Of a DNA stretch of 64,000 nt, positions 4,276 to 30,181 are shown in pieces. How positions within the stretch are numbered: the stretch's first letter is position 1; each line of letters starts with the position of its first letter. The stretch is taken from the IMG/VR virus record IMGVR_UViG_3300028048_000100, positions 33,214 to 97,213 of that record; one strand, written 5' to 3'. Both the position numbers and the translations under genes were made by a program. This stretch comes from a virus. Taxonomy: Duplodnaviria; Heunggongvirae; Uroviricota; Caudoviricetes. The notes under the pieces are model-generated. The model saw nothing but the letters and a program-made list of their open reading frames with translations, was not told where the DNA came from and did not search any database.

Positions 4276-4282
4276 TAAAAGA

Positions 4283-4324
4283 AGAAAGATCTATTCTCAG
4301 GTTCTTCCGGGAATAGATCTTTCT
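4283..4324 (+). terminator. stem-loop terminator candidate
   Basis: 14-bp inverted repeat agaaagatctattc / gaatagatctttct with a 14-nt loop, directly after the 2776-4275 stop and followed by a T-rich run. Confidence 0.5.
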
Positions 4325-4424
4325 ATTTCTAAATGTTTTAGCAAAGTTAATAGGATGACCGTAGAGCTCGATTTCTCGATCCCTACTTTCTTTTCGCACT
4401 CGTTTGAGTGCTTGAATCATTATG

Positions 4425-5352: not shown

Positions 5353-5376
5353 ACTTATATTGTTTTAATGGTTAAG

Positions 5377-5449
5377 TACCCCGGGTGCGACTCGAACGCA
5401 CGACCGGCGGGTTAGAAATCCGCTGCTCTATCCACTGAGCTACCGGGGC
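5377..5449 (-). tRNA. trnR: tRNA-Arg (anticodon TCT)
   Basis: The minus strand reads GCCCCGGTAGCTCAGTGGATAGAGCAGCGGATTTCTAACCCGCCGGTCGTGCGTTCGAGTCGCACCCGGGGTA. It folds into a cloverleaf: D-arm GCTC/GAGC, anticodon loop TTTCTAA (U33, TCT, A37), T-arm GTGCG-TTCGAGT-CGCAC and a 7-bp acceptor stem with G1:U72. CCA is not encoded. Confidence 0.75.
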
Positions 5450-5478
5450 AAATGTGACGGACTAGCCGCCACGGTCGG

Positions 5479-5958
5479 TTACTTAATATACGGATATGGA
5501 TCAGCACTTACTTCTTTAGCATTTTTCTTCAGTCCTGAACCATCTCGGTTTGTGAAATGTCTATCCACCTCAAATACTAGCCCTGTTCCAAGTTCCTTCA
5601 CGAAACCTTTTAACCATAAATCATATGTACCTTCGCCAGAGAATGCATCAAAATTAGTAGCTATAGAGTCATTGACTCGCCTAAGTGCTTCTAATTCCTT
5701 GGTTTTCCCTCGTGCGAGGACTTCACTTTTGCTTGTGACCTTCTGCGTGGTATCATTGAACAAAACGGTATCGCCTACATTCAATGCGAGCGCTGCCTTT
5801 CCGTCCATTGCATACTTACCTTGTGGGAATGTCACTTCGAACTGTCCGTCGCCGTCTCCAGATAACTGGACTCCGTATGCCAATCCGAACTGTGTTCCGC
5901 ATGAGGTGAGCATGATACTACTCATCACTGCAATTACGAAAACTAAAAATTTCTTCAT
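5479..5958 (-). CDS. putative secreted lipoprotein
   Basis: The internal start MKKFLVFVIAVMSSIMLTSCG gives a signal peptide plus a lipobox (LTSC). The ORF track extends the frame to 6003. Confidence 0.5.
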   Translation of the reverse strand: MKKFLVFVIAVMSSIMLTSCGTQFGLAYGVQLSGDGDGQFEVTFPQGKYAMDGKAALALNVGDTVLFNDTTQKVTSKSEVLARGKTKELEALRRVNDSIATNFDAFSGEGTYDLWLKGFVKELGTGLVFEVDRHFTNRDGSGLKKNAKEVSADPYPYIK

Positions 5959-5993
5959 GATGTTTGAATTTATTATGTTAAAATATAATAAAA

Positions 5994-6554
5994 TTATCTC
6001 CAAAATTTATACGTATAGTCGAACCCTTGAATACTCCAAATCTGCCCATCTTTGTACTTGTATTCGGCCAATTTAAGCAATTGATCTGGATCTCCTTCTA
6101 GTTTCATTCGACTCATGCGATATAACCGCTGATTAGTCGTCTCCTTGTCTAATCCACCGAGTTCTTTGATGTATGGGCCTACCTTGAGATAGGTTAGCAT
6201 CTGGACCCAGTACGAAGCCCCATGATCAATCATATCCTGAACATCCTTACGTCCTGAGTAGACTGCAATGTTCATCCACTTACCCCTCTCTGTGGTCCAG
6301 TCACAATAATATCCGACTATCTTAGCCAATCCATCGTAATCGGCATCTCCGCCCATTAGGCACAGACAAGTACAGGCGCTGTTGGCATCAAGCAAACGAT
6401 ACAACTCTTGTTTGGTTAGTTCTGTACCAACGTCCTCCCAGAGGAACTTACTGTGACAATCCGGACAGTGAATCGGACAGTTGCTGAGGTTGATACATAA
6501 TGTCACCTCATCTGGTATCTCCGAGAATGTTACTTGGTAGTTATAGTATTTCAT
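5994..6554 (-). CDS. nrdG: radical-SAM activase, NrdG-like (anaerobic RNR activating protein family)
   Basis: N-terminal CxxxCxxC (NCPIHCPDCH) followed by GGD (LMGGDADYDG) and 'IAVYSGRK', mirroring E. coli/T4 NrdG. ~186 aa. Its start overlaps the first IQD-family gene stop (ATGA). Confidence 0.5.
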   Translation of the reverse strand: MKYYNYQVTFSEIPDEVTLCINLSNCPIHCPDCHSKFLWEDVGTELTKQELYRLLDANSACTCLCLMGGDADYDGLAKIVGYYCDWTTERGKWMNIAVYSGRKDVQDMIDHGASYWVQMLTYLKVGPYIKELGGLDKETTNQRLYRMSRMKLEGDPDQLLKLAEYKYKDGQIWSIQGFDYTYKFWR

Positions 6555-6838
6555 AAGTATAGTGGTGTTATATTGTAATCTTTAAATTCTTCATAGATTT
6601 TCTGACATGCTAATTGAAACTCTTCACTCGGATCATCTGGATTATGAAGGTTGGGCACATATACATAAAACTCAGATGGGGTGCAATTTGGGAATCTCTT
6701 CTGAATAGCTAAAAATTCGAATCTCCAGTCCCTCATGACTAGGTCGCATCGCAATCGTTTCTGTCTAACGAACGTATCGAACAGCTTGGCTGCGTCAGTC
6801 ACTTGTTTCAATATATCCTCATCGCACGTCTGTATCAT
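6551..6838 (-). CDS. IQD-leader paralog family protein (variant leader MIQTCDEDIL)
   Basis: N-term MIQTCDEDILKQV; overlaps its neighbours. Confidence 0.6.
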   Translation of the reverse strand: MIQTCDEDILKQVTDAAKLFDTFVRQKRLRCDLVMRDWRFEFLAIQKRFPNCTPSEFYVYVPNLHNPDDPSEEFQLACQKIYEEFKDYNITPLYL

Positions 6839-7136
6839 ATAAAAAATATACTTCAGTTATCTTACGGATGTTAAATATATGGCGTCGGATTAAGTCAAAC
6901 ATGAAGCTCTTAGGTAATCCTCTGGGAGTTGCATAAGTCTGCCATTCGAACTGGAACTGACTGTCCGGATTGCGATTGGGAACCAAGTACTGGAACACCA
7001 AGCTACCCCCTGCGCCTTCCCATTTAGACTCAACGTGATCCTTATACTGCATTTCAAACGATCGCTTTAAGTTATCCTCAAACTCGATCTCGTGCATGTT
7101 ACCCTTCACAACCTTTGTGTCATCATCTTGTATCAT
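6819..7136 (-). CDS. IQD-leader paralog family protein
   Basis: N-term MIQDDDTKVVKGN; the promoter-like motif abuts its ATG. Confidence 0.7.
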   Translation of the reverse strand: MIQDDDTKVVKGNMHEIEFEDNLKRSFEMQYKDHVESKWEGAGGSLVFQYLVPNRNPDSQFQFEWQTYATPRGLPKSFMFDLIRRHIFNIRKITEVYFLYDTDVR

Positions 7137-7167
7137 ATATACAAAGTATCTGGGATATCTTTAGTGC
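7137..7167 (-). promoter_or_regulatory. conserved phage promoter-like motif (short variant)
   Basis: The minus strand reads GCACTAAAGATATCccagatactttGTATAT directly fused to ATGATACAAGAT of 6819-7136. Confidence 0.45.
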
Positions 7168-7352
7168 TTCTTCATTGCTTTTGCAAACATAGGTGCTAAA
7201 CTGGCAGGTACAACGACGTAACTAGATGATCCATACTTTCGTCTTCGCTCTTCAATAGCGTTAGCGGTATTTAGTATCTTGTCAAAGAGCTGACGAGACT
7301 GAATCATCTTGTCTTCTCGATCTAGTACTTGTTCATCACTTGCTTGTATCAT
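7161..7352 (-). CDS. IQD-leader paralog family protein (63 aa)
   Basis: N-term MIQASDEQVLDRE. Confidence 0.6.
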   Translation of the reverse strand: MIQASDEQVLDREDKMIQSRQLFDKILNTANAIEERRRKYGSSSYVVVPASLAPMFAKAMKKH

Positions 7353-8002
7353 AGTACAAATGTTTGAGGGCTGTTTGCAATCATTCGTATTCGAGAGATC
7401 TCTTCCACAACAGCAGAGGCATCTTCGTTGTGGTCCAACCCACTAAATCGTGCTGTTAATTCGTCTTCATATCGATCCGATTTGATACTCAATCGCTCAC
7501 CAAGGACTTTGAATTTGACATAGAAGTTGTGTGAGCTCGCATATGATCCGTCCCAAAACTCATGGTCAACCTTTTCTGGGTCCATGATCTCAACGTTGTA
7601 TCCCGAACGAATCACAGTAGACTCGCGTAGGCCCCTCATTCGCGTCTCATCATCAGCCTCATACGTGGTGTACTCATATTTCATATATAAGGGCTCCGGT
7701 AGATGTTCACTAATCCACTTGAGGCCTTTTTCCATATACTCGTTAACGATATTTGCATTCACATATACCGGGTATCCACACATATTATCATACACGTATT
7801 TCGTATACGAGCGACGATTGATGCTTTTGATACTAAACCTCATCATCATCTCGGATATGTGGTTGTCGCGATTGAAGCTTCGATCTAACGCATTTATCTT
7901 ACCGGCGCCTGTGAAGAAGTCGTATATTAAACGAGCCACCTCTCGTCTCATATGTGTACGAGACACTTCAAAAATTACTTTTTCATCACTGTCCTGTATC
8001 AT
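7349..8002 (-). CDS. IQD-leader paralog family protein (217 aa)
   Basis: N-term MIQDSDEKVIFEV; 4-nt overlap with its neighbours. Confidence 0.7.
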   Translation of the reverse strand: MIQDSDEKVIFEVSRTHMRREVARLIYDFFTGAGKINALDRSFNRDNHISEMMMRFSIKSINRRSYTKYVYDNMCGYPVYVNANIVNEYMEKGLKWISEHLPEPLYMKYEYTTYEADDETRMRGLRESTVIRSGYNVEIMDPEKVDHEFWDGSYASSHNFYVKFKVLGERLSIKSDRYEDELTARFSGLDHNEDASAVVEEISRIRMIANSPQTFVL

Positions 8003-8423
8003 CGTATATTGCTTCTAATCCATATTCTACACTATCCATCCACTGTATATTTACACCAAACTGCCTCAGTTTCAATGCTAAGTTGTTCTTAGTCTTCCAG
8101 ACTAATCTCTCTTCTTTTATAACACTCCCATCATCTCGAACACCTACACATACAAGTTGCTCCTCAGTATCTTTTATCATTTCCTCATACTCATACTTAT
8201 AGAACTTGACCGATATCACATGATCGTTGATGTAATAATGATCTCCTCCAGGAGGTACTACGAGTATTGGTTCGCTGAATATGACTCGGAATAGACCAGT
8301 CACTTCAAAGTACTTATCGTTACTATTCCGATTCGCATAGGAATGGTTAAATGCATCCAAAATGATCTGATCCACTAATCGATCAGTCTTACCTATTACT
8401 ATGTCATCATCATCTTGGATCAT
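7986..8423 (-). CDS. IQD-leader paralog family protein
   Basis: N-term MIQDDDDIVIGKT. Confidence 0.7.
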   Translation of the reverse strand: MIQDDDDIVIGKTDRLVDQIILDAFNHSYANRNSNDKYFEVTGLFRVIFSEPILVVPPGGDHYYINDHVISVKFYKYEYEEMIKDTEEQLVCVGVRDDGSVIKEERLVWKTKNNLALKLRQFGVNIQWMDSVEYGLEAIYDDTGQ

Positions 8424-8737
8424 TAGATTGCTTGGTATACGCTTGAAGGAATTGTTAGCTTATGCGGAAAGGTAATCTCTCCTTTATCTCGTTCCAATAA
8501 CAATGAGAACCCAACTAATGCGAACACGTCAGTTACCGTCTCTCTCACTCGTATAACATGCTCTTTCCAAATAGCTTCTCCTTTCTTCCTAATGTAATAT
8601 GTGAAGTCCCAGCAGCCGTTGCATCTATTCACGTAGTTGGTCGCTTTCTGTAACTTACAAGCTTCCCTTACATCCTCGGCGAAATGAGAATAGTTAGTTA
8701 CTTGATCTATTACTATACTATCATCGTCCTGTATCAT
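8423..8737 (-). CDS. IQD-leader paralog family protein
   Basis: N-term MIQDDDSIVIDQV; 1-nt overlap with the downstream gene. Confidence 0.7.
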   Translation of the reverse strand: MIQDDDSIVIDQVTNYSHFAEDVREACKLQKATNYVNRCNGCWDFTYYIRKKGEAIWKEHVIRVRETVTDVFALVGFSLLLERDKGEITFPHKLTIPSSVYQAI

Positions 8738-9095
8738 TGTGTAAGTTTATCTGTATCTTTACAAACATTTCGTCTCTCTCATGTGGAGAAGCGTACTTAG
8801 CCATCTCTATGACTGTCTTATTGTACTCTAACATGTCCTGTATTTCAGACATCCTCTTGCGCACGTATACTTTGAAGTCGTCATTGATGTTCGATTTAAC
8901 CCACTGAGGACTAAAATGGATTGTGTGCGGACGTTTACGACCACCATACGTTATAAGATCAACGCTAAAAGTCCAACTAAGCTCTCTTCCATAATTATAG
9001 CGGATAGCATTCTCAAGCTCTTGATTGAGTAAGCTCTCGAACTCAGCACCTTCTCGTACTTTCTTCTCTACTATGTTATCATCATCTTGTATCAT
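8721..9095 (-). CDS. IQD-leader paralog family protein
   Basis: N-term MIQDDDNIVEKKV. Confidence 0.7.
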   Translation of the reverse strand: MIQDDDNIVEKKVREGAEFESLLNQELENAIRYNYGRELSWTFSVDLITYGGRKRPHTIHFSPQWVKSNINDDFKVYVRKRMSEIQDMLEYNKTVIEMAKYASPHERDEMFVKIQINLHNDTGR

Positions 9096-9517
9096 TTCGG
9101 CATTACTATTCCAACGGGCTTGATGAGATATGACGGTACTTTGAAGTATGGCGGCGTTTTACTTGGTTCTTTTTTATCGAGATTATTTACTATAAAATCT
9201 ACAATACAGGCCGCTAATCTCTTCGGTAATGCAGATTTCCCTAGTTCGGACCATGCTATCTCCATGGTTAATTCCTTTTCAGTAGTGTCATAGTTACAGC
9301 CCCGAAAACGCACAGGCTCGTCAAACACTAATTTGATTTTTGCCTTCACATGCGCCTGATATTTCATATCACCATCAGAGTAGCGTTGGTGTATGATACT
9401 CCGTCCCCGAAGGTCTATTGACTTCTGGTATAACTCTTCACACATATGTTCTAAGTGCCACCGGTTCATTTCCTTGGCAGACTTAGCCATTACTTGCTTG
9501 TCGTCGTCTTGTATCAT
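9092..9517 (-). CDS. IQD-leader paralog family protein
   Basis: N-term MIQDDDKQVMAKS; ATGA coupling. Confidence 0.7.
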   Translation of the reverse strand: MIQDDDKQVMAKSAKEMNRWHLEHMCEELYQKSIDLRGRSIIHQRYSDGDMKYQAHVKAKIKLVFDEPVRFRGCNYDTTEKELTMEIAWSELGKSALPKRLAACIVDFIVNNLDKKEPSKTPPYFKVPSYLIKPVGIVMPK

Positions 9518-10125
9518 TTCACTACGTAGTGTATTGTCTGATACGGTAGTTCTCGTATCGGAGACAGTTTTGTTTCGAATGGGATAGCATCGTTAAAGAG
9601 CACCGATAGAGCAACCTCAGAGTCTGCTATGTTCTCAGTAAGCTTGATAACGAATTGTATGCTATGTACTATATATGGATCAGTCAACTTTAATCCATCG
9701 CTGGTGAGTCCAAACTTATCAGACATGAAGCCTACGATAACACTGCCGGTCTCTTGCTTAAGGTTAGTGTCGTATATCCCAGTCTGATTGACGTTCTTTA
9801 TATCACTATCCACGCGGGTGAGAGTCTCGCCATAGATAGCATTCATGTCGCGAATGAACTCTGCAATCTTACCCACGAGGTTGCGATACACATCGTTCAT
9901 GTAAAATATAGGTTTGCGCTTTTGGGGGTTGGCTACAAACTTATCCGTAAACTTGAGTATGTACCGCCCGACATCACTACCCTCCTGTTGAAAAGCCTCA
10001 ACGCGGTCAAAGTCAAACACACCATCGAACGAAGTCTTGAACTGCTCAGTGATGCGGTGACAAACCCAGTATGGGTTATTCTGGAGATTGCGCTGCTCAA
10101 CAATATTATCGCTATCCTGGATCAT
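9514..10125 (-). CDS. IQD-leader paralog family protein (203 aa)
   Basis: N-term MIQDSDNIVEQRN; the promoter motif abuts its ATG. Confidence 0.7.
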   Translation of the reverse strand: MIQDSDNIVEQRNLQNNPYWVCHRITEQFKTSFDGVFDFDRVEAFQQEGSDVGRYILKFTDKFVANPQKRKPIFYMNDVYRNLVGKIAEFIRDMNAIYGETLTRVDSDIKNVNQTGIYDTNLKQETGSVIVGFMSDKFGLTSDGLKLTDPYIVHSIQFVIKLTENIADSEVALSVLFNDAIPFETKLSPIRELPYQTIHYVVK

Positions 10126-10159
10126 ATATCTATATCCAAAGAATGCAAAAATCTTTAGT
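10126..10159 (-). promoter_or_regulatory. conserved phage promoter-like motif
   Basis: The minus strand reads CACTAAAGATTTTTGcattctttGGATATAGATAT directly fused to ATGATCCAGGAT of 9514-10125. Confidence 0.5.
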
Positions 10160-10575
10160 TATAATCGTGCTTCATAACGGTGCCAAGGATCCAGCACACT
10201 GACTCTTTCGATTAACACGTTGTGCATATCATGTTCTTCCACAGGGTATTTCTCCTGTATCCGTTTTAAGAGCTGTATATAAATTGTGTCGATGAGGCGG
10301 ATATAGTTATCAGCTGAAAACTTGCGGACCTGCTTGTTGAACTGGAATTGTTTCGGGATGTTCACAGTTACATACCCTTTGTCTTCAAATTCTAAATCAG
10401 GATCGCGATCAACAGTATAGTCCGTGATGATAACAACGTCTACCTTCTTGCCCACAATAGCCATTGAGAACACACTTTTCACAGATAGGTCCGCATGTTC
10501 CTGGATCTCTTTGCATATGCGCATGTATTGCTCTAAATTACGCCCTAATACTTCATTGTCGTCATTTTGAATCAT
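10159..10575 (-). CDS. IQD-leader paralog family protein
   Basis: N-term MIQNDDNEVLGRN. Confidence 0.7.
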   Translation of the reverse strand: MIQNDDNEVLGRNLEQYMRICKEIQEHADLSVKSVFSMAIVGKKVDVVIITDYTVDRDPDLEFEDKGYVTVNIPKQFQFNKQVRKFSADNYIRLIDTIYIQLLKRIQEKYPVEEHDMHNVLIERVSVLDPWHRYEARL

Positions 10576-11146
10576 GTGAAACTCCTGTATAACTAAAGTG
10601 GAATGAATCGTTAGTTTCTTTTATGGTGCCGTTCTCAAGATCGGCTTGATCAATGCCGAGCTTATCGAGCATATCTAACATACCAGCGGCATTCACACCA
10701 GCAGTGTCGTAGATATCGCTAAGATGATTTGCTAATAAATGGGTTTTGGTCACCGATGGACCTTGACGCCACAATAACATACTCTTGATAGACCTGAAGT
10801 CCTCTAAGTTGTAGTGACGTTTACTCATATAAGCAACAATTTTATCCAATATCACAGAAGCCCAGGAGGTCTCATTTGCAGATACTGTCCAGTCCATATG
10901 AACCCATAGATCATCTGGTATAGTTACATAGATGCTCTCATCATTCCGATCCTTAGTCTTAAATGATATCTTGATGCTATCATACGGCCCATACATCTCA
11001 CTACGAGGATCGCCGGGATTGCTTCTTTTTACCTCTGTAAGCTTACTCCACAATATCGGCATATACCGCATAATCTCGGTGGTAATCTTGAGGTGATTCT
11101 CATCTACGCCAGATTTTAATATTTTCTCATCCGACTCTTGTATCAT
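10562..11146 (-). CDS. IQD-leader paralog family protein (194 aa)
   Basis: N-term MIQESDEKILKSG. Confidence 0.7.
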   Translation of the reverse strand: MIQESDEKILKSGVDENHLKITTEIMRYMPILWSKLTEVKRSNPGDPRSEMYGPYDSIKISFKTKDRNDESIYVTIPDDLWVHMDWTVSANETSWASVILDKIVAYMSKRHYNLEDFRSIKSMLLWRQGPSVTKTHLLANHLSDIYDTAGVNAAGMLDMLDKLGIDQADLENGTIKETNDSFHFSYTGVSHDSK

Positions 11147-11157
11147 AAAATTTGATT

Positions 11158-11196
11158 ATTGCACATTTATTTGCGATTTAACGCGCGATCTCATCA
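11158..11196. promoter_or_regulatory. conserved intergenic element TTGCGATTTAAC-N4-GATCTC (copy 1 of 3)
   Basis: attgcacatttatTTGCGATTTAACgcgcGATCTC. Near-identical copies lie at 30791-30827 and 50431-50472. Confidence 0.5.
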
Positions 11197-11246
11197 AGGC
11201 TGAATAGTTCTTAACCTAAAACGTTTTAGCGCATTTAAAATCAATT

Positions 11247-11513
11247 TTATCTCACCTCGAAGTATATGAAACTACCATCTTTCACCAAGTGTTTGAGGTA
11301 ATCGGATTTTCGATACCATCCATAATGCTGGATTCTGATGCTATCATCTGTCATATCAATAACCTTTTTACCAATTACATTGGAGCCATTTTTAACGAGG
11401 ATAGTGCAGTGACGTCTAAAACTAAGATTGCGCCAATGTTCTTCTCTCCAGTAGTATCCGTACCAGATGACTGCTGCAATGATAAGCAGCGCTATAACGA
11501 TTGGGGTTATCAT
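11247..11513 (-). CDS. small membrane protein (88 aa)
   Basis: N-terminal TM helix MITPIVIALLIIAAVIWYGYYW. Confidence 0.5.
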   Translation of the reverse strand: MITPIVIALLIIAAVIWYGYYWREEHWRNLSFRRHCTILVKNGSNVIGKKVIDMTDDSIRIQHYGWYRKSDYLKHLVKDGSFIYFEVR

Positions 11514-11779
11514 TTTTTCTTGAGTTTAGATTGGATTTGTTTTGAGATTTCTAAGTTACGTTTACGCTTCTCCTCCATTTCCTCTGGATGAGTATGGGCG
11601 TATTCGATCTGCTCAGTCACAAAGGACTTCGGTATTTGCAGCTTCCAGTTGAAGTAGTGAGGACACATTAGGAACCAATGTGGATCCCGGGCGTCGTCAA
11701 TACACTTGCCTTTCATGATACAAGTTTTCTTGCATACCTCTTCTTGAAAGACAGGGACATCTTTAACGTCGTATTTCAT
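11510..11779 (-). CDS. small Cys-rich (zinc-binding?) protein
   Basis: CKKTC…CIDD…CPHY cysteine cluster. 4-nt overlap with the downstream gene. Confidence 0.45.
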   Translation of the reverse strand: MKYDVKDVPVFQEEVCKKTCIMKGKCIDDARDPHWFLMCPHYFNWKLQIPKSFVTEQIEYAHTHPEEMEEKRKRNLEISKQIQSKLKKK

Positions 11780-11780
11780 A

Positions 11781-12236
11781 TTACTTAAGGTTGAATCGTT
11801 TGAGGTATTCTGAACTCAGCGGATAAAACACACCGTCTTCACCCATGTAGTGACTGGCGCCGAGCACAACCATCAAGGACATGTTATCTCCATCCTTGCA
11901 ATACTCAGGAAAGTATAGCGTTATGGGTTTGTTGATGCCATGAGCGTAGCCAATCTCCCAAACCGTACCTGATGTGCAATAGTGACTGCCGTACATAGCA
12001 ATAACCATGTCACACGAGTCAAGCTCCTGCACATCCTTATCTCGGACTGCTTTAGCCCATTGGTAGTTAGAGAAGTTCCAAGTGCCGTCTGGTTTTTGAA
12101 AATCTCCAGGAACCTTGAACTCCATTGGGATGTATAACTTTGCGTTCGGATACTTCGTACGCACTATCTCAATCATGTGTTTAAGGGCTTCGCGCTCACG
12201 AGGCTGCGAAAATGGCCCGGCAATGTATATCTTCAT
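11781..12236 (-). CDS. nucleoside 2-deoxyribosyltransferase (NDT) family protein
   Basis: 'KIYIAGPF' N-terminal motif and 'TSGTVWEIGYAHGINKPI', matching the NDT catalytic Glu region. The most likely start is MIMKIY at 12236; the track's earlier Met (12260) reads through the promoter motif. Confidence 0.55.
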   Translation of the reverse strand: MKIYIAGPFSQPREREALKHMIEIVRTKYPNAKLYIPMEFKVPGDFQKPDGTWNFSNYQWAKAVRDKDVQELDSCDMVIAMYGSHYCTSGTVWEIGYAHGINKPITLYFPEYCKDGDNMSLMVVLGASHYMGEDGVFYPLSSEYLKRFNLK

Positions 12237-12242
12237 AATCAT

Positions 12243-12276
12243 ATATCTATATATGCACAAATTAGTAATCTTTAGA
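12243..12276 (-). promoter_or_regulatory. conserved phage promoter-like motif (variant)
   Basis: The minus strand reads CTAAAGATTACtaatttgtgcATATATAGATAT followed by ATGATTATG. Confidence 0.45.
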
Positions 12277-12819
12277 AGTAAACGGCTGATAAATTAGTTC
12301 ATTCTTATGTTTCTTGATGTAATTGAATATGTTTTCTAAGATTTTCTGCTTACCAAACTCTATTGGAAATTCATACTCATCCTCTTTTTTACCAACTGAT
12401 CTGAACGCATCTCTCTGCTTGTTCAGGGCAAAGTTTCGCGTGCTCTCCCGGTCTCTTAGAGACATATTAGTTAGTATTATCCCAAATTTCACCGAGCTTG
12501 GTTCTGTGTAGCCATACCTTGGATCCCTATTGATCCCGCGCACAATCAGGTTAATCATGCAGTCTGAGAATTTGATAGCATTAGTATATGGTCCAAGCAT
12601 TCCACTAGATTGTATTGTTAGTTCAATTTGCCGGCCTATGATCGCATCCAATACTCTAATGGAGAATCCTTCTAACCACTCAGTATAAGTCATATCGGGC
12701 AAGTCTTTAATACCAGATGTATCCGGCCAGCCACTAGACCAGTTACTTTCCCGTTCTTTTGGGATATATAGTGTGTCTTTGGTCTTCTCCAATATTTCGT
12801 TGTCGCTATCTTGTATCAT
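12262..12819 (-). CDS. IQD-leader paralog family protein (185 aa)
   Basis: N-term MIQDSDNEILEKT. Confidence 0.7.
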   Translation of the reverse strand: MIQDSDNEILEKTKDTLYIPKERESNWSSGWPDTSGIKDLPDMTYTEWLEGFSIRVLDAIIGRQIELTIQSSGMLGPYTNAIKFSDCMINLIVRGINRDPRYGYTEPSSVKFGIILTNMSLRDRESTRNFALNKQRDAFRSVGKKEDEYEFPIEFGKQKILENIFNYIKKHKNELIYQPFTSKDY

Positions 12820-13175
12820 CTTACTTTCAGCAAATTTATTTCATACAAGCCATATTTTTCGTATGGATATTCTCGCCCGATTTTTCTGTCTTGTTCGAAT
12901 ATTCGGTCCACTATAAATGCAATAGTGTTAATCACATTCTCTTCTAACGAGAGCTTCATATCATAGTGCCAATCTTCTGGAATGTTAAGTCTGAGAAAAT
13001 CAGGATGTCCATTATAGTAGACTACTCGAAGCTGCTTATATTCAGTCTTACCATACACCTCTAGATCTTTGCCCACAACTCTAACATATGCCGGAAGTTC
13101 TTTGGTGATCTCCCGGTATAATGTTATGCCCGTAACAGATTTGGACAATACTTCACTGTCGTCGTCTTGAATCAT
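12816..13175 (-). CDS. IQD-leader paralog family protein
   Basis: N-term MIQDDDSEVLSKS; ATGA overlap with the upstream gene, checked by hand. Confidence 0.7.
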   Translation of the reverse strand: MIQDDDSEVLSKSVTGITLYREITKELPAYVRVVGKDLEVYGKTEYKQLRVVYYNGHPDFLRLNIPEDWHYDMKLSLEENVINTIAFIVDRIFEQDRKIGREYPYEKYGLYEINLLKVR

Positions 13176-14077
13176 GCTTTTTGGAAGCTTGTGGGTTCCA
13201 TGAGGAGCATATAGCTGTGAGACACCTTGGTTACTTGACGAGCCTCATCCCAAACGTATTTGTGGAAGACGTGAGTCTTGATCACATTCGCGGTGAAGTC
13301 GTGATTCTTAACAGTCGCACCAAGCTCGCGGCCGGTTTTCGTAGTGAGGATCGGTTTGTAGATCCAATAGTTCGCCCAGTGCGTCGGGGCAATAGACTTC
13401 ATTGGAAGGTTGAACATAGCCACCTTAACGTTGTGGCCATCTACGATAGCGTTAGCTGCGAGGTTGCCATCAATGCCATCGGTGTTATTCATCGCACTGT
13501 TGTTGTAGATGTTCGAGGTGAAGTGGATGAGCTTAGTACCGTCGAAGTTGAGCTCCTTGTCTGCGTCTTTAACAGTCACCTCAACTCTGCGATCAGTAAC
13601 GATGAGTTGGTACTTAACAGGGTCGATATCATCGATCTTACGAAGTGAACGAGCGCTCGACATGAGACGATACTTACTAACGATGTCGAAGTTGCCGGTC
13701 TTGATATCGAAATGACGGCTGCGATCTACAATAGTAGTGGCTACCTCAATCTCAAACCAGTTGTCTTTAAGGCGCACGCCCTCATCCAGACGCTCACCCT
13801 TCTTATTGAACTTATACGGGAGAGAGTACTGCGGGCCGTAAGCCGTGGCACCATAGTGAGAGATGTCTGCGTTGTCGAAGATTACATGGCAGCGATATAT
13901 CAGCTTATCGTCGTTGTCGATGACGTTAGCAGATGCGGCTTGAACGATCTGCTTGGTACGGCCCTCACCGATCTCCAAAGCGAATACGTTGGTAGTGAAG
14001 TATGCTCGACGGGTGCCCGAGAACTTTAACATGTCCTCCGCTCTCTCCAAAACGCTGAAATCACTGTCCTGTATCAT
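13172..14077 (-). CDS. IQD-leader paralog family protein (301 aa, largest member)
   Basis: N-term MIQDSDFSVLERA; first gene after the promoter motif. A 3-codon mini-ORF (ATGCAGATATGA) overlaps its start. Confidence 0.7.
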   Translation of the reverse strand: MIQDSDFSVLERAEDMLKFSGTRRAYFTTNVFALEIGEGRTKQIVQAASANVIDNDDKLIYRCHVIFDNADISHYGATAYGPQYSLPYKFNKKGERLDEGVRLKDNWFEIEVATTIVDRSRHFDIKTGNFDIVSKYRLMSSARSLRKIDDIDPVKYQLIVTDRRVEVTVKDADKELNFDGTKLIHFTSNIYNNSAMNNTDGIDGNLAANAIVDGHNVKVAMFNLPMKSIAPTHWANYWIYKPILTTKTGRELGATVKNHDFTANVIKTHVFHKYVWDEARQVTKVSHSYMLLMEPTSFQKA

Positions 14078-14098
14078 ATCTGCATAGTTTTATGTTAT

Positions 14099-14132
14099 AT
14101 ATCTATATACAAAGAAAGAGGAAATCTTTAGT
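14099..14132 (-). promoter_or_regulatory. conserved phage promoter-like motif (canonical copy)
   Basis: The minus strand reads GGGAATCACTAAAGATTTCctctttctttGTATATAGATAT ~20 nt upstream of the ATG at 14077. Confidence 0.55.
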
Positions 14133-14163
14133 GATTCCCTCCTGAATTATAGACGTTTTGGTG

Positions 14164-14739
14164 TTATTTCCTTATGACCTTTTCTGCGTGGTCTATTAGG
14201 TATTGATATATATCTTCAGTTGCTATTCTAGCGCTGTGATTTATCACATGTGGAAATACTGAAGTTATTACGTATAACTCAGTTTTTATTTTTCGTCGTT
14301 GCGCGATTGATAGATAAGCAGTATTTTTCGATGCGTTGAATGTGAATCTGCAGATATACGTATCTCCATAACTCACATCGAAAGAGAAATTGTCAGATTC
14401 TTTACCTTTATTTGTAGTGAAGTTTACAGTTAGACCTTGTTTCTTGAGATCTCGTTTTACTTCCCTAGCACCGCCTTGAATGATCGACATTATAACCGAC
14501 ATTTCAAGTCCTTGATTCCCTGTTCCTTCATCACGCGTAACAACTTCGTCTTTAAATTTCACATACATTGGTGATAAGAAATTCCGACTATCGGTTGCAG
14601 GGTTGTACGCTCTCACATCAGGAATCAAGCCCAAATGCTTTAATAATGAATCGCAAAGGGCATACGTTGCGGTCATGGTTTTTGACTTATCAAGAACCTC
14701 AGAGTCATTATCTTGTATTGCTTCCCATAGCGGTCTCAT
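14164..14739 (-). CDS. IQD-leader paralog family protein, long-leader form
   Basis: N-term MRPLWEAIQDNDSEVLDKS. Confidence 0.7.
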   Translation of the reverse strand: MRPLWEAIQDNDSEVLDKSKTMTATYALCDSLLKHLGLIPDVRAYNPATDSRNFLSPMYVKFKDEVVTRDEGTGNQGLEMSVIMSIIQGGAREVKRDLKKQGLTVNFTTNKGKESDNFSFDVSYGDTYICRFTFNASKNTAYLSIAQRRKIKTELYVITSVFPHVINHSARIATEDIYQYLIDHAEKVIRK

Positions 14740-15272: not shown

Positions 15273-15779
15273 TTACACATTATCTTCAATGATCTTGAGT
15301 AATTCCTTGTGTTTGAGAGCATGTCTGGATAGCTCAAATGGCATAAATCTCACGATGACATTATGACCGAATTTGTCTTTAGTCCTCACAACGTCGATGT
15401 GCCAATCTACACCGTGCTCCTCATCCTCATCTCCGAATCTCCAAGACAGTAGGTACTTGACTAACCACACATCCGGATTAACAGCCATCTTTTGTTGATC
15501 GTGCGATTCAATTGCAAATTCCAAATCATGATATTGCTTCTTGATCATTTGGTTCATCTTGCTAATTTCGAGGATAAACTGATTTGTCCTCCAATTGTCA
15601 AAGTACCAGGTTTCATCACCCACTTCTTTAACCCCTATCCGATTGTCTCGAGTTCTACGATCTAGTTTACCAAATACTTTTACAAAGCATTCAGCGAAAA
15701 ATGGATAGAATAGTGCTTCTTTAGATTTGCTATCTACCTCTTTGTCATTATCTTGTATAGCTTCCCAAAGTGGTCTCAT
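15273..15779 (-). CDS. IQD-leader paralog family protein, long-leader form
   Basis: N-term MRPLWEAIQDNDKEVDSKS; ATGA overlap with the upstream gene. Confidence 0.7.
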   Translation of the reverse strand: MRPLWEAIQDNDKEVDSKSKEALFYPFFAECFVKVFGKLDRRTRDNRIGVKEVGDETWYFDNWRTNQFILEISKMNQMIKKQYHDLEFAIESHDQQKMAVNPDVWLVKYLLSWRFGDEDEEHGVDWHIDVVRTKDKFGHNVIVRFMPFELSRHALKHKELLKIIEDNV

Positions 15780-17181: not shown

Positions 17182-17202
17182 ATTGCTGTTAATATAATAA
17201 GT

Positions 17203-19191
17203 TTACCACATGCCAGATTGCTGATAATTCTGCTGATAATTTGGCTGTTGTTGGTATCTTTGGTTCATAGCAGCATATATATCATTCATATTAGTAAATA
17301 CCTTTGTTGGATCGAAGTACTGCCCATCGCTATATTGTTGCAGCTTCTGCATGTCAATCTGCCCTGGGTATGCCATAGGTCGAACAGGTTGTGCTTGCTG
17401 CGGTTGGGGAGATGGAGTACCAACCAGCCCAAGTTCAAGGCGAGATTCAAACTCAGATCTCAGATATTTGTATGCACGAGACTGTTTGGCGTGAACCATT
17501 TGAATCTCAGCCATCATAATATCGTCGTGGCCGAATGATGCCTTGTACGTACCATTGCCATTACTATCACTAAAGTTCTCTGCCTCAAACAAAAAGTCCA
17601 CACACCTATTAACTAATACATCGCGTTCAAATTCATCTTTGAACATTTTACAGCCGATGGACTTAGTAGCTGTGTTTAGCTTGACACCCATCGTAAACTT
17701 AGTCATATTGTCGTTATAGTACTTGACTATGTTAGACTCATCGAAATTAGCGCAGCTCGGATACTTATTGCGATTCTCCATCAGATACATGATGAACAAT
17801 TCTCCGTACGTGTTGTATTCCAAGCTTATACAGTGCTGGTCTGGATGTAAGTATTTGATATCCAATTCCATCAAAGCAATGGACGCTTTGTCGAGGTTCA
17901 TTGTGTTACATCTGAACATACCTACACACTCATCTTTCTTACCAGGAATCATTCGGTTAAATAGGAACACAGTATAGTCCAATCCTACGCCCTCAGCCAA
18001 GTCTGCAGTTACTGTGATGAAGCTATTGCGGAGGTCGTCCATCGGTTCGAAATCAGGCTTCCAGAAGAAGTGCTCTGAACCAGTAACGCCAAATAAGTCC
18101 TTATTGACAAATGTGATAGCTTCGCGTTGTCTCTTGCGGAGTATCTTAGTGTTAATGAGTGTATTGGCGTTGATGTCGAAGTTAGTACCAAACTGTGTAT
18201 TGAATGCCTCTTCAGAGCCATAGTTAGCCACCTGCATCTGGTGCCATGCCTCGTCTCGCTTCTCCCAGCAACGCTTCTCCGGATTCCATTCTGGTATCTC
18301 GTCCCAGTCGGTTTTGTAAGCACCAAACTCATTCATATGCTGCTCTGCTGCCTTGTATATACGGTAGAACAAGTCCAAGCCACCCTGTGTACTGGTTAGC
18401 ATAAGACGTGCCTTACCTGCCTGGATGGTAGGCAGCAAGAAGTTGTACAATTTGTCTTTGATATTTGGTGCAGTGTGAGCCACCTCGTCCCAAAGCACGC
18501 AGTGTAAAGTGTAACCAATGCCTGCAGTTGGAGTAGTGGCCTGGGCGATAAGCTTGCAGCCGTTATCCAAAACAATCTGCGACTCATTCCATTTGTACAC
18601 GCCAGGGCGTAAGAAGTACGGTAACTCAACGAAGATCGCCTTTGTCTTTTCCATAATATCCTTAGCGTGTGAGAAAACATCCGCAATAACAAGCGCATTC
18701 TTATCCACATTGAACAGAATGTACCATAGTAAGAATATAGATGAGGTAGTTGTTTTACCGCATTGTCGAGCGGCGAGATATATAGAAAGACGGTATTTCA
18801 TTAAGTGGTCCAAATAACCTTCTTGGTAACCACGCATCTTAACCTTCTTGATGCCTTCCGGCGTCATCAATTTACAATATGTGTTGCTGAAGTAATGGAT
18901 ATCCGCGGCGCATTTCTTCCATTCTTCTATCTCTTCTTTTGTACGCTGGAATACGAGGTCGCCCTTCAAGATTTTTGAGTTGTTCTCGTAGAATGGATTC
19001 GCGACCAGCTTTCGTCCATCCTCCAGTCCTTTGATAGCAGCTTCGATGGTTTTAGTAGACCAGACTACACGTCTCGCCTTAACACCATCGCGCTCTTCTT
19101 TAACTGGATTAAAATCATTCTTCATATGATATATAATATGTTTTAATGCAATTTTTTCATAGTTTTTCTTTAATAAACACTGAAAACACAC
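17203..19191 (-). CDS. terL: terminase large subunit (TerL)
   Basis: Terminase-type Walker A 'LAARQCGKTTT', Walker B 'HCVLWDEVAH' and a downstream nuclease-like region. It carries an unusual Q/N/Y-rich C-terminal tail. Confidence 0.85.
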   Translation of the reverse strand: MCFQCLLKKNYEKIALKHIIYHMKNDFNPVKEERDGVKARRVVWSTKTIEAAIKGLEDGRKLVANPFYENNSKILKGDLVFQRTKEEIEEWKKCAADIHYFSNTYCKLMTPEGIKKVKMRGYQEGYLDHLMKYRLSIYLAARQCGKTTTSSIFLLWYILFNVDKNALVIADVFSHAKDIMEKTKAIFVELPYFLRPGVYKWNESQIVLDNGCKLIAQATTPTAGIGYTLHCVLWDEVAHTAPNIKDKLYNFLLPTIQAGKARLMLTSTQGGLDLFYRIYKAAEQHMNEFGAYKTDWDEIPEWNPEKRCWEKRDEAWHQMQVANYGSEEAFNTQFGTNFDINANTLINTKILRKRQREAITFVNKDLFGVTGSEHFFWKPDFEPMDDLRNSFITVTADLAEGVGLDYTVFLFNRMIPGKKDECVGMFRCNTMNLDKASIALMELDIKYLHPDQHCISLEYNTYGELFIMYLMENRNKYPSCANFDESNIVKYYNDNMTKFTMGVKLNTATKSIGCKMFKDEFERDVLVNRCVDFLFEAENFSDSNGNGTYKASFGHDDIMMAEIQMVHAKQSRAYKYLRSEFESRLELGLVGTPSPQPQQAQPVRPMAYPGQIDMQKLQQYSDGQYFDPTKVFTNMNDIYAAMNQRYQQQPNYQQNYQQSGMW

Positions 19192-20669: not shown

Positions 20670-20698
20670 AAAGAGAACCGCAAGGTTCTCTTTTATTA
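20670..20698 (+). terminator. rho-independent terminator
   Basis: agagaacc-gcaa-ggttctct stem followed by TTTTATT. Confidence 0.65.
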
Positions 20699-20707
20699 TA
20701 TAGTTAT

Positions 20708-21283
20708 ATGAGAACACTTTGGGAAGCCATACAGGATACAGACGATAGAATCAATGCAAAGGCGGATAGTTATTTAGCTATTAGACGGATGGCTGAAGAG
20801 CTGATTGATACATTTGGAAAAGCTACGCATACAATTGATATGTGGAGTGGGGATGGTATTACGTTTGATAAGTACACACGTAATACAAAGGGTAGTGCTA
20901 TGCTAGATCCTGAGTCATACACGACACCTCTTCAAGACGTAAAAGATGAGGTACAAACTTTGATTGATAAATTCAAAGCCGGATTGAAAAAGATCCACGG
21001 CGTCAAGAATATAAAGGATGCATTCACTAATGATAATGACAACCGCAGCACTATTTTCAAGAAATCATCTATATGGGTGATGGTGGAATTTGATAAGAAG
21101 TTAGATATGCCCGGGTTCTCATTTGAATTTGTATTTGAATACACGTCTACAGGTCATAGAAAAGCAATCGACATACGAAATATACCGGAAGGTATTAACT
21201 TCGTTGAGATGTACAGCCGCGTATTCTCAGACAATCAGGATAACGTTAAGCAGTTCAAAAAAATAATCGAAGAATTGGTATGA
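20708..21283 (+). CDS. IQD-leader paralog family protein, long-leader form
   Basis: N-term MRTLWEAIQDTDDRINAKA. Confidence 0.75.
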   Translation: MRTLWEAIQDTDDRINAKADSYLAIRRMAEELIDTFGKATHTIDMWSGDGITFDKYTRNTKGSAMLDPESYTTPLQDVKDEVQTLIDKFKAGLKKIHGVKNIKDAFTNDNDNRSTIFKKSSIWVMVEFDKKLDMPGFSFEFVFEYTSTGHRKAIDIRNIPEGINFVEMYSRVFSDNQDNVKQFKKIIEELV

Positions 21284-21690
21284 GGACTCTTTGGGAAGCG
21301 ATTAACGATAATGACGAAACTGTGATTCATAACAGTAAACTCATCACAGACGTAGACACCCAACGCTATAAGCTGATGAAGCTATTAACGGAGTTCTTTG
21401 GAGTTAAGGAGTTTATACCTCACAAGAACTATCACGGCACGCTGATTATCAAGAGAACTAATCATCTCAAGATAAACGAATTTGCCAAGCAATTAGAGAA
21501 GCAACCTTTTGTTACTATGACCAAAGTAGATCGAGGGGATAAGTTAGCGAGTTATGGTTCAACTCTATATGTGAATAGTAATCTTGGTATATTGTGGTAT
21601 TTCACTTTCAATAAGGTGCTGAATGCCATCACCTCGGTACATGATAGTGAAGGTGTTCACATAAATCTATTTAACTACATGAAACAATGA
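21280..21690 (+). CDS. IQD-leader paralog family protein, long-leader form
   Basis: N-term MRTLWEAINDNDETVIHNS; ATGA coupling. Confidence 0.75.
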   Translation: MRTLWEAINDNDETVIHNSKLITDVDTQRYKLMKLLTEFFGVKEFIPHKNYHGTLIIKRTNHLKINEFAKQLEKQPFVTMTKVDRGDKLASYGSTLYVNSNLGILWYFTFNKVLNAITSVHDSEGVHINLFNYMKQ

Positions 21691-22172
21691 GACCGCTTTG
21701 GGAAGCCATACAAGATAGTGATGATAAGATCCTAAACAGATCAAAAGATATGCTTGGGAAGAATCAGCTGGAGGCGATGATGCTACTAATCATCAACCCA
21801 GTTGTAGAACTGATGCATAAATATCAGTGTAAGTACAATGGCCAAGATGATGCTACTAATGTATTCTCATTTGAAGAAAAGGATCACTACACCAATAACA
21901 TAGACTCAAAAGAGGTTAGAGATGCAGTGATAAAGAGCATCAAATCATCCAACTACAAGGATATCATGAAGATAGATACTAAGTATGTATTGTTCATAGA
22001 TTTCACTGATGAGGATATGCGAAAGAAATACCATAGGTCCGATAAGAAGTACAACGACCAATACGCACTGAACGTGGAAGTTACATTCCATTCAGGCAAG
22101 TGTTTTCTCAACGTATTCGGCAATAACACCTTCATAAGAACCTTCGAAAAATTACTAGATAAGCGAGCATGA
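21687..22172 (+). CDS. IQD-leader paralog family protein, long-leader form
   Basis: N-term MRPLWEAIQDSDDKILNRS. Confidence 0.75.
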   Translation: MRPLWEAIQDSDDKILNRSKDMLGKNQLEAMMLLIINPVVELMHKYQCKYNGQDDATNVFSFEEKDHYTNNIDSKEVRDAVIKSIKSSNYKDIMKIDTKYVLFIDFTDEDMRKKYHRSDKKYNDQYALNVEVTFHSGKCFLNVFGNNTFIRTFEKLLDKRA

Positions 22173-22666
22173 GAACACTCTGGGAAGCCATACAAAGTAG
22201 CGACGATGACATAGCTGCAGCATCAAGCAAAAGCATGGTGCCGTATCGCATAGTAGATATATTCTGCGATGTATTTGCACACATGTATCGTGATAAGGAT
22301 TCAAAATACGATCAAGGAAGTGATTATGTAGCTGGGCGTATACCAGTGTCTAACTATGACAAAATGGATAAGTATAAGACTGAGACTGAGCTGAAGAAGG
22401 ATCTACGTAAGTTCTGTAATAGTGTTCGATCTGAGTTTGCTCCGAAGGTGCTCATCCAGATGAAGACTAAACGAGATCAGATACTCAGAGTGGTAGATCG
22501 AAAAGACTATCGCATAATCATTTCTATTGGTAGCGCCACATATGGGCTAACAGTTCAGTTTGACACAAATCCGACGGCGAAGGGCGAGATTCCGGAGGTT
22601 AATTATATCCGTGTGATCTCGGGCAATCCTGATCTCATAACCGCATTCCATAATAAAGTTAAATGA
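22169..22666 (+). CDS. IQD-leader paralog family protein, long-leader form
   Basis: N-term MRTLWEAIQSSDDDIAAAS. Confidence 0.75.
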   Translation: MRTLWEAIQSSDDDIAAASSKSMVPYRIVDIFCDVFAHMYRDKDSKYDQGSDYVAGRIPVSNYDKMDKYKTETELKKDLRKFCNSVRSEFAPKVLIQMKTKRDQILRVVDRKDYRIIISIGSATYGLTVQFDTNPTAKGEIPEVNYIRVISGNPDLITAFHNKVK

Positions 22667-22667
22667 T

Positions 22668-23144
22668 ATGAGAACTCTTTGGGAAGCCATACAAGACAAC
22701 GATACTAAAATAGATGCGATATATGAAGAGTCTCGTTTGTTGCAAGAGATAGCAGATGGACTCAAGAAGCATTTCAGCAACTACTTGGAAAACGACTCCA
22801 AGATTAAGAAGGTCGGATCTTGGTGCCCACTTGGTAGGGTAGACGATGACTTGTACAACAAGGAAAGTATAAAGGATACCGAGGACTTCATGATTAAAAC
22901 TATCAAACAGATGCACAGGGATATCAAAAAGATACTAAAGAAGACGCTGGTTGATATTGAAACTTCAGTAGACAACTTCGGAGAGAATCACATCAAGCAC
23001 TACAATCTTACATTGTACATATCTGGATGTGAAACAAAGCACCTGATTCAATTTGTATTACACTCTAAGAGAAATAAATTCGGCGAAGAGGTGGAATACA
23101 TTGCTATTTGGACAAAAGATACTGAATTAGCCGATTTGATATGA
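22668..23144 (+). CDS. IQD-leader paralog family protein, long-leader form
   Basis: N-term MRTLWEAIQDNDTKIDAIY. Confidence 0.75.
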   Translation: MRTLWEAIQDNDTKIDAIYEESRLLQEIADGLKKHFSNYLENDSKIKKVGSWCPLGRVDDDLYNKESIKDTEDFMIKTIKQMHRDIKKILKKTLVDIETSVDNFGENHIKHYNLTLYISGCETKHLIQFVLHSKRNKFGEEVEYIAIWTKDTELADLI

Positions 23145-25892: not shown

Positions 25893-25924
25893 TTCTTTGC
25901 AATTACTTGTTTTCTTGTTTCGTA

Positions 25925-28162: not shown

Positions 28163-28166
28163 AACG

Positions 28167-30117: not shown

Positions 30118-30139
30118 AGTGTTTGCATATTTAATTGTT

Positions 30140-30173: not shown

Positions 30174-30181
30174 GATTCCCT

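Follow-up and report, generated by a model that had tools for sequence, protein, structure and literature searches.

The described elements that come closest to the one considered here are the PeSL and PmSL cassettes of T4-type phages, reported by Arbiol et al. in 2010 (PMC2839356) and Comeau et al. in 2014 (PMC4122927), which combine conserved promoters with stem-loops built of an A-run, a stem, and a T-run, lie among the ORFans of hyperplastic regions, and have been implicated in modular gene exchange. Our subject is a two-part, 35-base motif that recurs in a 64,000-nucleotide stretch (positions 33,214 to 97,213, hereafter the window) of the uncultured virus record IMGVR_UViG_3300028048_000100, and that is very probably the phage's own promoter, often fused to a transcription terminator. 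A further point of reference is Bacillus phage SPO1, in which gp28, a phage-encoded sigma-70-family protein, redirects the host core polymerase to non-host, two-box middle promoters; T4 itself uses MotA/AsiA and gp55 instead of a full sigma factor. The SPO1 sigma cascade is mentioned in PMC13401047. Features of this kind are already known from phages; the sequence of the motif is unusual here, and it may give rise to leaderless messages.

As in PeSLs, conserved promoter copies are joined, in 10 of 20 cases, to an A-run, a G-rich stem, a loop, a C-rich stem, and a T-run; the copies are scattered between small ORFans in the variable regions of a T4-related myovirus, adjoin gene replacements between related phages (the contigs L014, L016, and L025/L027, discussed below), and include decayed "half" copies. 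The differences concern the stem-loop, which here overlaps the -35-like box and in PeSLs lies just upstream; the promoter sequence, which departs from both the host and the sigma-70 consensus, where PeSL promoters come close to the sigma-70 consensus or are of Mot type; the lack of a Shine-Dalgarno sequence, with several copies abutting the ATG; and the host, probably a member of the Bacteroidales. With the SPO1 gp28 system the window shares a phage sigma-70-family protein and a two-box promoter of non-host sequence, the pairing of sigma and motif being only a candidate here; it differs in that its sigma is SigA-like, measures about 400 residues, and carries an insertion, and in that the phage is related to T4.

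The motif has the form aCTAAAGATTT-N9-TTTG-tATATAGATATA, and its consensus over 19 copies reads aCTAAAGATTTc...ttTcTTtG tATATAGATATAt. The original prediction, drawn from the letters of the window, counted at least eight occurrences; all eight sites exist, seven of them intact, and the one near 7135-7164 on the minus strand has decayed. The 34-nt pattern ACTAAAGATTTC-N10-GTATATAGATAT, searched with up to three mismatches, matches six sites, of which four are on the minus strand (10126-10159, 12243-12276, 14099-14132, and 30140-30173) and two on the plus strand (55239-55272 and 55694-55727), against a chance expectation of 0, as 100 dinucleotide shuffles gave zero matches; the site at 27012-27045 (minus strand) has four mismatches to the pattern and was recovered by a half-site scan (27014-27044). 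A weight matrix built on 19 copies, seven from the window and 12 from related contigs, gives exactly seven matches across both strands of the 64 kb, at 34-56 bits, and none between 12 and 34 bits, so that the motif is discrete and never lies antisense or deep within genes. Between the cores CTAAAGATT and TATATAGAT the spacing is exactly 13 nt in 19 of 19 copies, and the centre-to-centre distance of 22 bp is equal to ACTAAA-N17-TATATA, within the 16-18 bp that separate the hexamers of sigma-70-family promoters. By our own reading of the copies, TATATA is always followed by G and then A, and an A stands at the sixth position past it in 21 of 21 copies (the 19 of the matrix and two from L026), beyond which conservation of the consensus decays within a few bases. 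All eight window copies, and all those of the relatives, lie in intergenic gaps and are codirectional with the next gene. Intergenic, codirectional, discrete, and conserved in relatives, the motif bears out its earlier description as promoter-like.

A terminator hairpin, missed by that description, overlaps the upstream half of the motif in about half of the copies. The 10 copies concerned fold as strong hairpins (dG -10 to -21 kcal/mol, z -4 to -8), in which an A-rich, G-rich arm pairs with GATTTCC..CTTTC around the loop ACTAAA and a T-run follows (TTTCTTTG or TTGTTTG), the motif's upstream box providing the loop and the 3' arm. Three of them, at 14131, 30172, and 55240, are in the window. 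The copy at 14098-14132 (minus strand; ACTAAAGATTTCCTCTTTCTTTGTATATAGATATA; 55.7 bits) heads the gene 13172-14077 and those that follow it, with the ATG 23 nt past TATATAGAT, and its hairpin at 14116-14143 (minus strand), AGGAGGGAATC-ACTAAA-GATTTCCTCTT followed by TCTTTG (dG -13.9, z -5.1), is the top site of the terminator scan; the copy at 30139-30173 (minus strand; 50.8 bits) heads 29362-30117 and the following genes, with the true ATG at 30117, 24 nt past TATATAGAT, and its hairpin at 30158-30183 (minus strand), AAAGGGAATC-ACTAAA-GATTTCCTTT followed by TTGTTTG (dG -10.5, z -4.2), is matched by the same scan. The third, at 55239-55273 (plus strand; 53.7 bits), stands directly after the prohead protease gene and heads 55292-55669, which encodes a ProQ-C-like domain; its hairpin at 55224-55259 (plus strand), AAGAGAGGGAAGATC-ACTAAA-GATTTTCCCTTTCTT (dG -20.4, z -7.6), has a stem that differs from those of the other copies by compensating changes.

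Across the 10 hairpin copies 92% of cells pair, as against at most 70% when the partners are slid, and four stem pairs are changed on both sides (for example GAGGGAATC/GATTTCCTC versus GGGAAGATC/GATTTTCCC). An independent terminator scan ranks two hairpin copies among its top matches, and their style (A-run/GAGG...CCTC/T-run) is that of the window's terminators at 20670-20693, 50504-50530, and 59843-59868. To judge by sequence, these copies have what defines an intrinsic terminator, namely a stable stem containing G+C and a T-run at the end of a transcription unit: they stand at array heads, where the preceding genes encode the prohead protease, an MRPLWEA-tag protein, and an AAA_28 protein. 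The copies inside arrays have no hairpin and retain CTAAAGATT, so the upstream box is conserved as a sequence and not merely as part of a stem; since it is nevertheless contained in a terminator hairpin in half of the copies, the element is a composite terminator/promoter cassette.

The remaining intact copies are of the promoter-only form. One, at 27011-27045 (minus strand; 43.6 bits), is fused to the ATG of 26676-27011 (MIQDSD...); another, at 12242-12276 (minus strand; 34.2 bits), is fused to ATGATTATG of the nucleoside deoxyribosyltransferase gene 11781-12242 (phrog_7995) and has its upstream box inside the 3' end of the gene 12262-12819; a third, at 10125-10159 (minus strand; 48.9 bits), takes up all 33 nt that separate 10159-10575 from 9514-10125, to whose ATG it is fused (MIQDSD...); and the copy at 55694-55728 (plus strand; 35.1 bits) heads 55749-55967. 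In the decayed copy at 7135-7164 (minus strand; below 12 bits) the upstream box reads CTAAAGATa, the spacer has gained one base, and the downstream box has lost 6 nt, with TATATA abutting the ATG of 6819-7136. The claim that the motif is often fused to the ATG therefore applies to the three intact copies at 10158, 12275, and 27044, where the start codon directly abuts the 34-nt motif, and not to the four at 14131, 30172, 55240, and 55695, where it lies 21-24 nt past TATATAGAT. In the fused window copies, as well as in three relatives, the invariant A is the A of the ATG, and in two further copies (L005 4053 and one in L009) the ATG begins one base after it; the constant position of this A, and its identity with the first base of the start codon in fused copies, fit the earlier suggestion of leaderless messages.

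The prediction that three open reading frames carry falsely extended starts is confirmed as to the genes, whose real starts are 30117, 55292, and 12242, and is corrected as to the cause, for the extensions begin at the TTG of the motif's TTTG and not at an ATG. The element also overlaps the ends of preceding genes: the TAA of CTAAAG is the upstream gene's stop at 27044 (gene 27041-27334) and at 7164, a TAA in the spacer serves at 12275, and at 10158 the stop overlaps the first base of the element. The deoxyribosyltransferase gene begins ATGATTATGAAG (12225-12242, minus strand; M-I-M-K-I-Y), and members of this enzyme family typically start near MKIYIAGP, which makes the second ATG look like the native start and the first ATGAT like a remnant of an MIQD cassette boundary, which suggests recombination within the motif and ATGAT at this gene.

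The copies head blocks of one to eight packed or overlapping genes, which form two minus-strand arrays; downstream of the protease gene, two copies each head a single gene. In the array at 4265-14077 (minus strand), four successive motif-led blocks contain about 22 tightly packed or overlapping genes, mostly ORFans tagged with the N-terminal peptide M-I-Q-D that is described below, together with an NrdG-like gene (5994-6554), a PRTase gene (4425-4982), the deoxyribosyltransferase gene (11781-12242), and a tRNA-Arg gene (anticodon TCT; 5376-5449, minus strand) embedded among them. The array at 25219-30117 (minus strand) has two motif-led blocks with 13 genes, 11 of them MIQD/MITGDD-tagged. A 27-nt repeat, GTTAAATCGCAAATAAAYGYGCAATAA, lies upstream of both 10562-11146 and 30182-30766 (about 11150-11200 and 30780-30830, minus strand).

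Metagenomes, scanned with a strict form of the motif, yielded as relatives the contigs L005, L009, L010/L015, L014, L016, and L017, which carry the motif and otherwise have little nucleotide-level similarity to the window; relatives contribute 14 further copies. The contigs derive from SRR8442993, SRR16606037, SRR17035160, and ERZ27257204. Cassettes are replaced at conserved motif sites: L026, whose prohead protease is 58% identical, has kept both post-protease copies, and L014 has kept both as well, with a flanking protease and next two genes that are homologous to the window's and two genes behind the copies that have no detectable similarity to those of the window. In L016 a motif stands between the homologue of g29362 and the next MIQD-tagged gene, where the window has none. 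The Logan contigs L025 and L027, which are 94-99% identical to the window, terminate inside the post-protease motif (at 5397-5454 and 9440-9494, respectively), and their hairpin there is of the GGGGGAATC/GATTTCCTC variant where the window has GGGAAGATC/GATTTTCCC, which points to an assembly break at a repeat combined with copy-to-copy exchange. Outside this group, the exact core has 22 single matches, never clustered, in the genomes of 185,579 species, where chance, by our estimate, would give roughly 17 or more, so that the motif is not a recognisable class of host promoter; its two single matches in IMG/VR have unrelated contexts and were judged to be chance.

We propose that the -35-like box (a)CTAAAGATT would lie at about -33 to -25 and the -10-like box TATATA(GA) at about -11 to -4, followed by a conserved discriminator, GAYRY, and that transcription would start at the invariant A, six bases past TATATA, sigma-70-family promoters typically initiating 5-8 nt beyond their -10 element. 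In the window this A stands at 14098, 30139, 27011, 12242, and 10125 on the minus strand and at 55273 and 55728 on the plus strand. In fused copies the +1 A would be the A of the ATG, and the messages are predicted to be leaderless because the two coincide; copies in which the ATG begins one base later would give near-leaderless mRNA, and the other window copies a leader of 19-22 nt, the modal leader of Bacteroides thetaiotaomicron being 23 nt (PMC7366714). At array heads the A-tract, stem, ACTAAA loop, and T-run would overlap the -35-like box, such that preceding transcripts would end within the element and the new transcript would start about 12 nt later, and the hairpin-less copies inside arrays would act as booster promoters. 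Being near-identical, the copies would also serve as recombination points for the exchange of cassettes among related phages. That the element is a promoter of some kind we regard as highly likely, and to the promoter/terminator cassette as a whole we would assign a probability of roughly 0.6.

Several points weigh against this account. Promoter activity and the start site are read from sequence alone, and the covariation counts are modest because the relatives' copies are not independent. Leaderless mRNAs are rare in Bacteroides, where only about 3.7% of 5' untranslated regions are shorter than 10 nt (PMC7366714). The phage's sigma factor, considered next, might read TTATTATA or another sequence instead of the motif, and the relatives whose sigma is 50-57% identical (L021, L023, L052, and L053), about 70 kb in all, have no matrix match of 8 bits or more. 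Distant relatives show just a weak possible variant, CTAAAT...-N13-TTATATAAAAAC-AT(G), in L053 and L003: the terminase relatives in IMG/VR (L003 and L004, 53-56% identical) have no motif by matrix, and a loose search for CTAAA-N17-19-TATAWA in distant relatives gives few candidates, with two near-identical tandem copies in L053, in numbers too small to be relied on. A further loose match in L053 was rejected, its CTAAAG lying in the C-terminal coding sequence of the sigma gene. Many of the tagged genes behind the motif resemble those for capsid-targeted proteins, which by analogy would be expected late rather than in a middle class, and a gp55-type late factor is absent from the window proteins scanned, the search being confined to the window.

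The sigma factor is encoded at 48057-49268 (plus strand), and its original identification holds: it is a genuine member of the sigma-70 family with regions 2 and 4 (Sigma70_r2; phrog_351, 1e-24), whose regions 2.1-2.2, 2.3-2.4/3.0, and 4 align to SigA/RpoD structures in the Protein Data Bank, with an insertion between 2.2 and 2.3. Of the residues that read position -12 in E. coli, Q437 is replaced by A and T440 by L (our own numbering from the alignment). Homologues of the protein number more than 1000 in metagenomes, and cultured phages have none. We tentatively name this sigma, acting on host core RNA polymerase, as the likeliest reader of the motif, at somewhat less than even odds, since regions 2.4 and 4.2 would suit a two-box promoter more than one with a single box and the arrays hold genes of nucleotide metabolism; these genes (deoxyribosyltransferase, NrdG-like, and PRTase) fit pre-late expression, and the copies would then be middle-type promoters analogous to those dependent on SPO1 gp28. 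MotA, AsiA, gp55, and a phage RNA polymerase were all absent from about 55 window proteins in Pfam and PHROGs scans, an incomplete scan of a partial genome.

The motif is not the only promoter-like sequence in the window. A second motif, TTATTATA, which the two-box motif does not match, has nine of its 11 occurrences outside genes, and eight stand no more than 40 nt ahead of a start codon on their own strand (sites at 20693-20700, 35966-35973, and 42055-42062 and, on the minus strand, at 40917-40924, 44619-44626, 30772-30779, 17193-17200, 5984-5991, and 52858-52865). It stands 6-26 nt before the gene at 35979, the first MRTLWEA gene, the RimK-like and AAA_28 genes, and others; syntenic genes of L021 have it upstream as well, at 20670-20700 it comes immediately after a terminator hairpin, and before the terminase gene it takes the looser form ATATTATATA. 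By our own reading, the printed flanks contain no conserved upstream partner box. The late promoter of T4, of the gp55 type, consists of just one 8-bp element, TATAAATA, at -10 and lacks an upstream box, a description that TTATTATA fits better than the two-box motif does, and TTATTATA is a candidate single-element, late-type promoter, although the RimK-like and AAA_28 genes also follow it. A hybrid-looking site, ACTAAAGAGGTTTGTCTTATTATATATA (42040-42067, plus strand), lies upstream of the SSB-like gene 42122-43228 and has a box like the upstream half of the motif, which precedes a TTATTATA element by 10 nt, possibly by chance. The primary-sigma consensus of Bacteroidetes is -33 TTTG / -7 TAnnTTTG (PMC7366714), and TAnnTTTG boxes occur in intergenic gaps at 49266-49273 (plus strand) before 49286-49576 and at 58121-58128 (plus strand) before the helicase gene 58141-59844, the latter downstream of a hairpin and conserved in L021, with additional boxes at 62790-62797 (plus strand) and 52854-52861 (minus strand); they are candidates for host-read, early promoters. 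A scan for E. coli-type promoters shows no enrichment (55, 52, and 55 sites versus 56, 52, and 49 expected). As the motif, TTATTATA, and the TAnnTTTG boxes precede different genes, the phage seems to have three promoter-like classes.

Such host-type boxes bear on a rival account, in which the motif itself is an early promoter, a phage "super-consensus" that the host's RNA polymerase, unmodified and carrying its primary sigma factor, would read to drive host-takeover ORFans as soon as infection begins. T4 early promoters likewise depart from what is average in the host. Behind the motif stand mostly small ORFans, in arrays of hyperplastic appearance, and T4 early promoters and PeSLs are found in such a setting (PMC4122927, PMC2839356); the boxes would lie at about -33 and -7 if transcription starts at the invariant A, matching the Bacteroidetes layout, and the predicted leaders of about 20 nt would suit the host mode (PMC7366714). 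The sequence itself argues otherwise: CTAAAGATT stands against TTTG and TATATAGA against TAnnTTTG, with only TA and one T of the -7 box coinciding, and no copy has TAnnTTTG; the mismatch to this consensus was already part of the original prediction. The canonical boxes before 49286 and 58141 indicate that the phage appears to use host-type promoters separately. To this may be added the chance-level frequency of the exact core in the species' genomes, a weak argument given that host promoters are degenerate. An E. coli-type consensus (TTGACA/TATAAT) agrees no better, the -35-like box being unrelated to TTGACA and the -10-like TATATA close to TATAAT. Reading by the unmodified host enzyme is on balance unlikely, at roughly one chance in four.

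It is markedly less probable that the host sigma-A holoenzyme is retargeted by a phage activator of the MotA/AsiA kind, with CTAAAGATT as its MotA box. The T4 Mot box lies about 12 bp upstream of the -10 element, and the motif comes near this middle-promoter geometry with its upstream box of 9 bp and the 13 bp between that box and the -10-like element; PmSLs, too, join a middle promoter to a stem-loop, their Mot box standing "at the appropriate distance" from a -10-like box (PMC4122927). Against the activator stand the lack of a MotA or AsiA homologue in the same partial scan of the partial genome and a downstream box that is not host-like either. Least probable, by a slight further step, is a role other than that of a promoter, as an RNA-processing site, the operator of a translational repressor that overlaps the start codon, or a DNA site of recombination or cassette capture, the terminator then being the sole transcriptional function. 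Certain copies do overlap start codons, cassettes are exchanged at motif sites, and the gene right behind one copy encodes a ProQ-C-like RNA-binding domain. Yet in hairpin copies the upstream box would be tied up in a stem, at the 3' end of the RNA from upstream, and in the others it would be single-stranded, which rules out a single mode of RNA recognition and leaves recognition as double-stranded DNA; the distance from the downstream box to the ATG is 2 nt in some copies and more than 20 nt in others. The invariable spacing of the boxes, 13 nt or 22 bp from centre to centre, suits a holoenzyme. Neither an integrase or recombinase among the proteins scanned nor an Rfam match for the motif was found (tRNA was the only Rfam result), and recombination at repeats is expected as a by-product of identity, as has been argued for PeSLs.

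The original prediction had taken ATGATACAGGA for a part of the motif. It lies outside it and encodes M-I-Q-D, the start of a family of 25 genes (63-301 residues) in the two arrays that begin M-I-Q-[D]-[DS]-D-x-x-[VI]-[L], only four of which stand directly behind a motif. Their starts are at 6838, 7136, 7352, 8002, 8423, 8737, 9095, 9517, 10125, 10575, 11146, 12819, 13175, and 14077 in one array (6551-14077, minus strand) and at 25578, 25892, 26323, 26676, 27011, 27334, 27723, 28162, 28581, 28934, and 29365 in the other (25219-29365, minus strand). The tag codons vary synonymously (ATA/ATC/ATT, CAA/CAG, GAT/GAC, and AGT/AGC/TCG), so it is the peptide that is conserved and not the DNA. That the genes behind the motif are paralogues was considered and rejected, BLASTP similarity beyond the first 10 residues being almost nil. 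The related contigs L005, L009, L010, and L016 have MIQ-tagged sets of their own, most without a BLASTP match to window genes.

Nine paralogues, very divergent afterwards, begin with the longer leader MR[TP]LWEAIQDNDxxV (14164-14739 and 15273-15779 on the minus strand, six genes in 20708-23602 on the plus strand, and 38244-38834 on the minus strand), which has L-x-E at positions 4-6 and I-x-D at positions 8-10; a profile of MR[TP]LWEA finds just 22 representatives in 1.84 billion proteins, with leaders of the form M-[RK]-x-L-[WYL]-E-x-I-x-D-x-D. The internal proteins of T4 carry a 10-residue capsid-targeting sequence, and its prohead protease acts at L/I-x-E sites (PMC3012670, PMC9026906). The window resembles this arrangement in that diverse small proteins share just an N-terminal leader of about 10 residues, a gp21-family protease is encoded at 54133-55206, and the L-x-E and I-x-D of MR[TP]LWEAIQD recall the T4 sites; it differs in that 25 genes have the truncated form M-IQD-xDxxV, many of them in arrays that look pre-late, and in that position 10 is aspartate rather than glutamate. 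On this resemblance, the M-I-Q-D tag may be a truncated capsid-targeting or protease-recognition leader, or some other shared docking peptide, and it may perhaps be more unusual than the motif itself. Other genes start M-[KR]-[STDG]-L-x-E-x-L-x-E, for instance MKSLEETLKESL and MKDLGEMLKEQLE (38831-39229, 50532-50822, 50833-51441, 52064-52408, 52411-52680, 61362-61943, 43300-43971, and 32727-35894, minus strand), with similar N-termini in the distant relatives L004 and L023, and possibly encode scaffold or internal head proteins with protease sites. It is conceivable, though quite improbable, that motif and M-I-Q-D tag form one system, in which a promoter specific to the phage sigma yields leaderless transcripts that start at the AUG of a capsid-targeting-like tag, homology in the motif and the tag codons allows dozens of unrelated small effector genes to be exchanged as cassettes, and the TAA in CTAAAG supplies stops; if true, this would give the uncultured Bacteroidales myoviruses of the gut an unusually large arsenal of tagged proteins that is quickly reshuffled and whose members are possibly packaged and injected.

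The phage is an uncultured myovirus distantly related to T4, with a T4 baseplate-like protein, head-closure proteins, and the prohead protease among the structural genes of the window. The terminases closest to its own large terminase (17203-19125, minus strand) are those of Tenacibaculum phages PTm1/PTm5, at 31% identity, and of Sphingomonas phage PAU, and a megablast of 24 kb of the window against the INPHARED phages gave zero matches, so that nothing near was found among cultured phages. An anaerobic host in the Bacteroidales is probable, given the absence of Shine-Dalgarno sequences (none was seen by eye in the gene upstream regions inspected), a BT4734-like domain (a weak Pfam match, below the curated cut-off), the NrdG-like gene, and relatives in gut metagenomes. 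Intergenic gaps make up 3.2% of the window, and the 10 kb to its left (L050, with DNA polymerase B, dCTP deaminase, and thymidine kinase) contain no additional copy of the motif.

If the cassette is confirmed, a large uncultured group of T4-related gut phages would acquire a defined 35-bp promoter and a matching sigma factor, and the idea behind PeSLs, namely that promoter/terminator repeats serve as shuffling points, would extend beyond the T4 relatives that infect Proteobacteria and Vibrio. Leaderless expression is rare in the host phylum, and the fused copies would supply a clear natural example of it. Gene calling would improve with the removal of false TTG-extended starts, genes could be sorted into temporal classes, and the promoter and sigma would offer orthogonal expression parts for the Bacteroidales.

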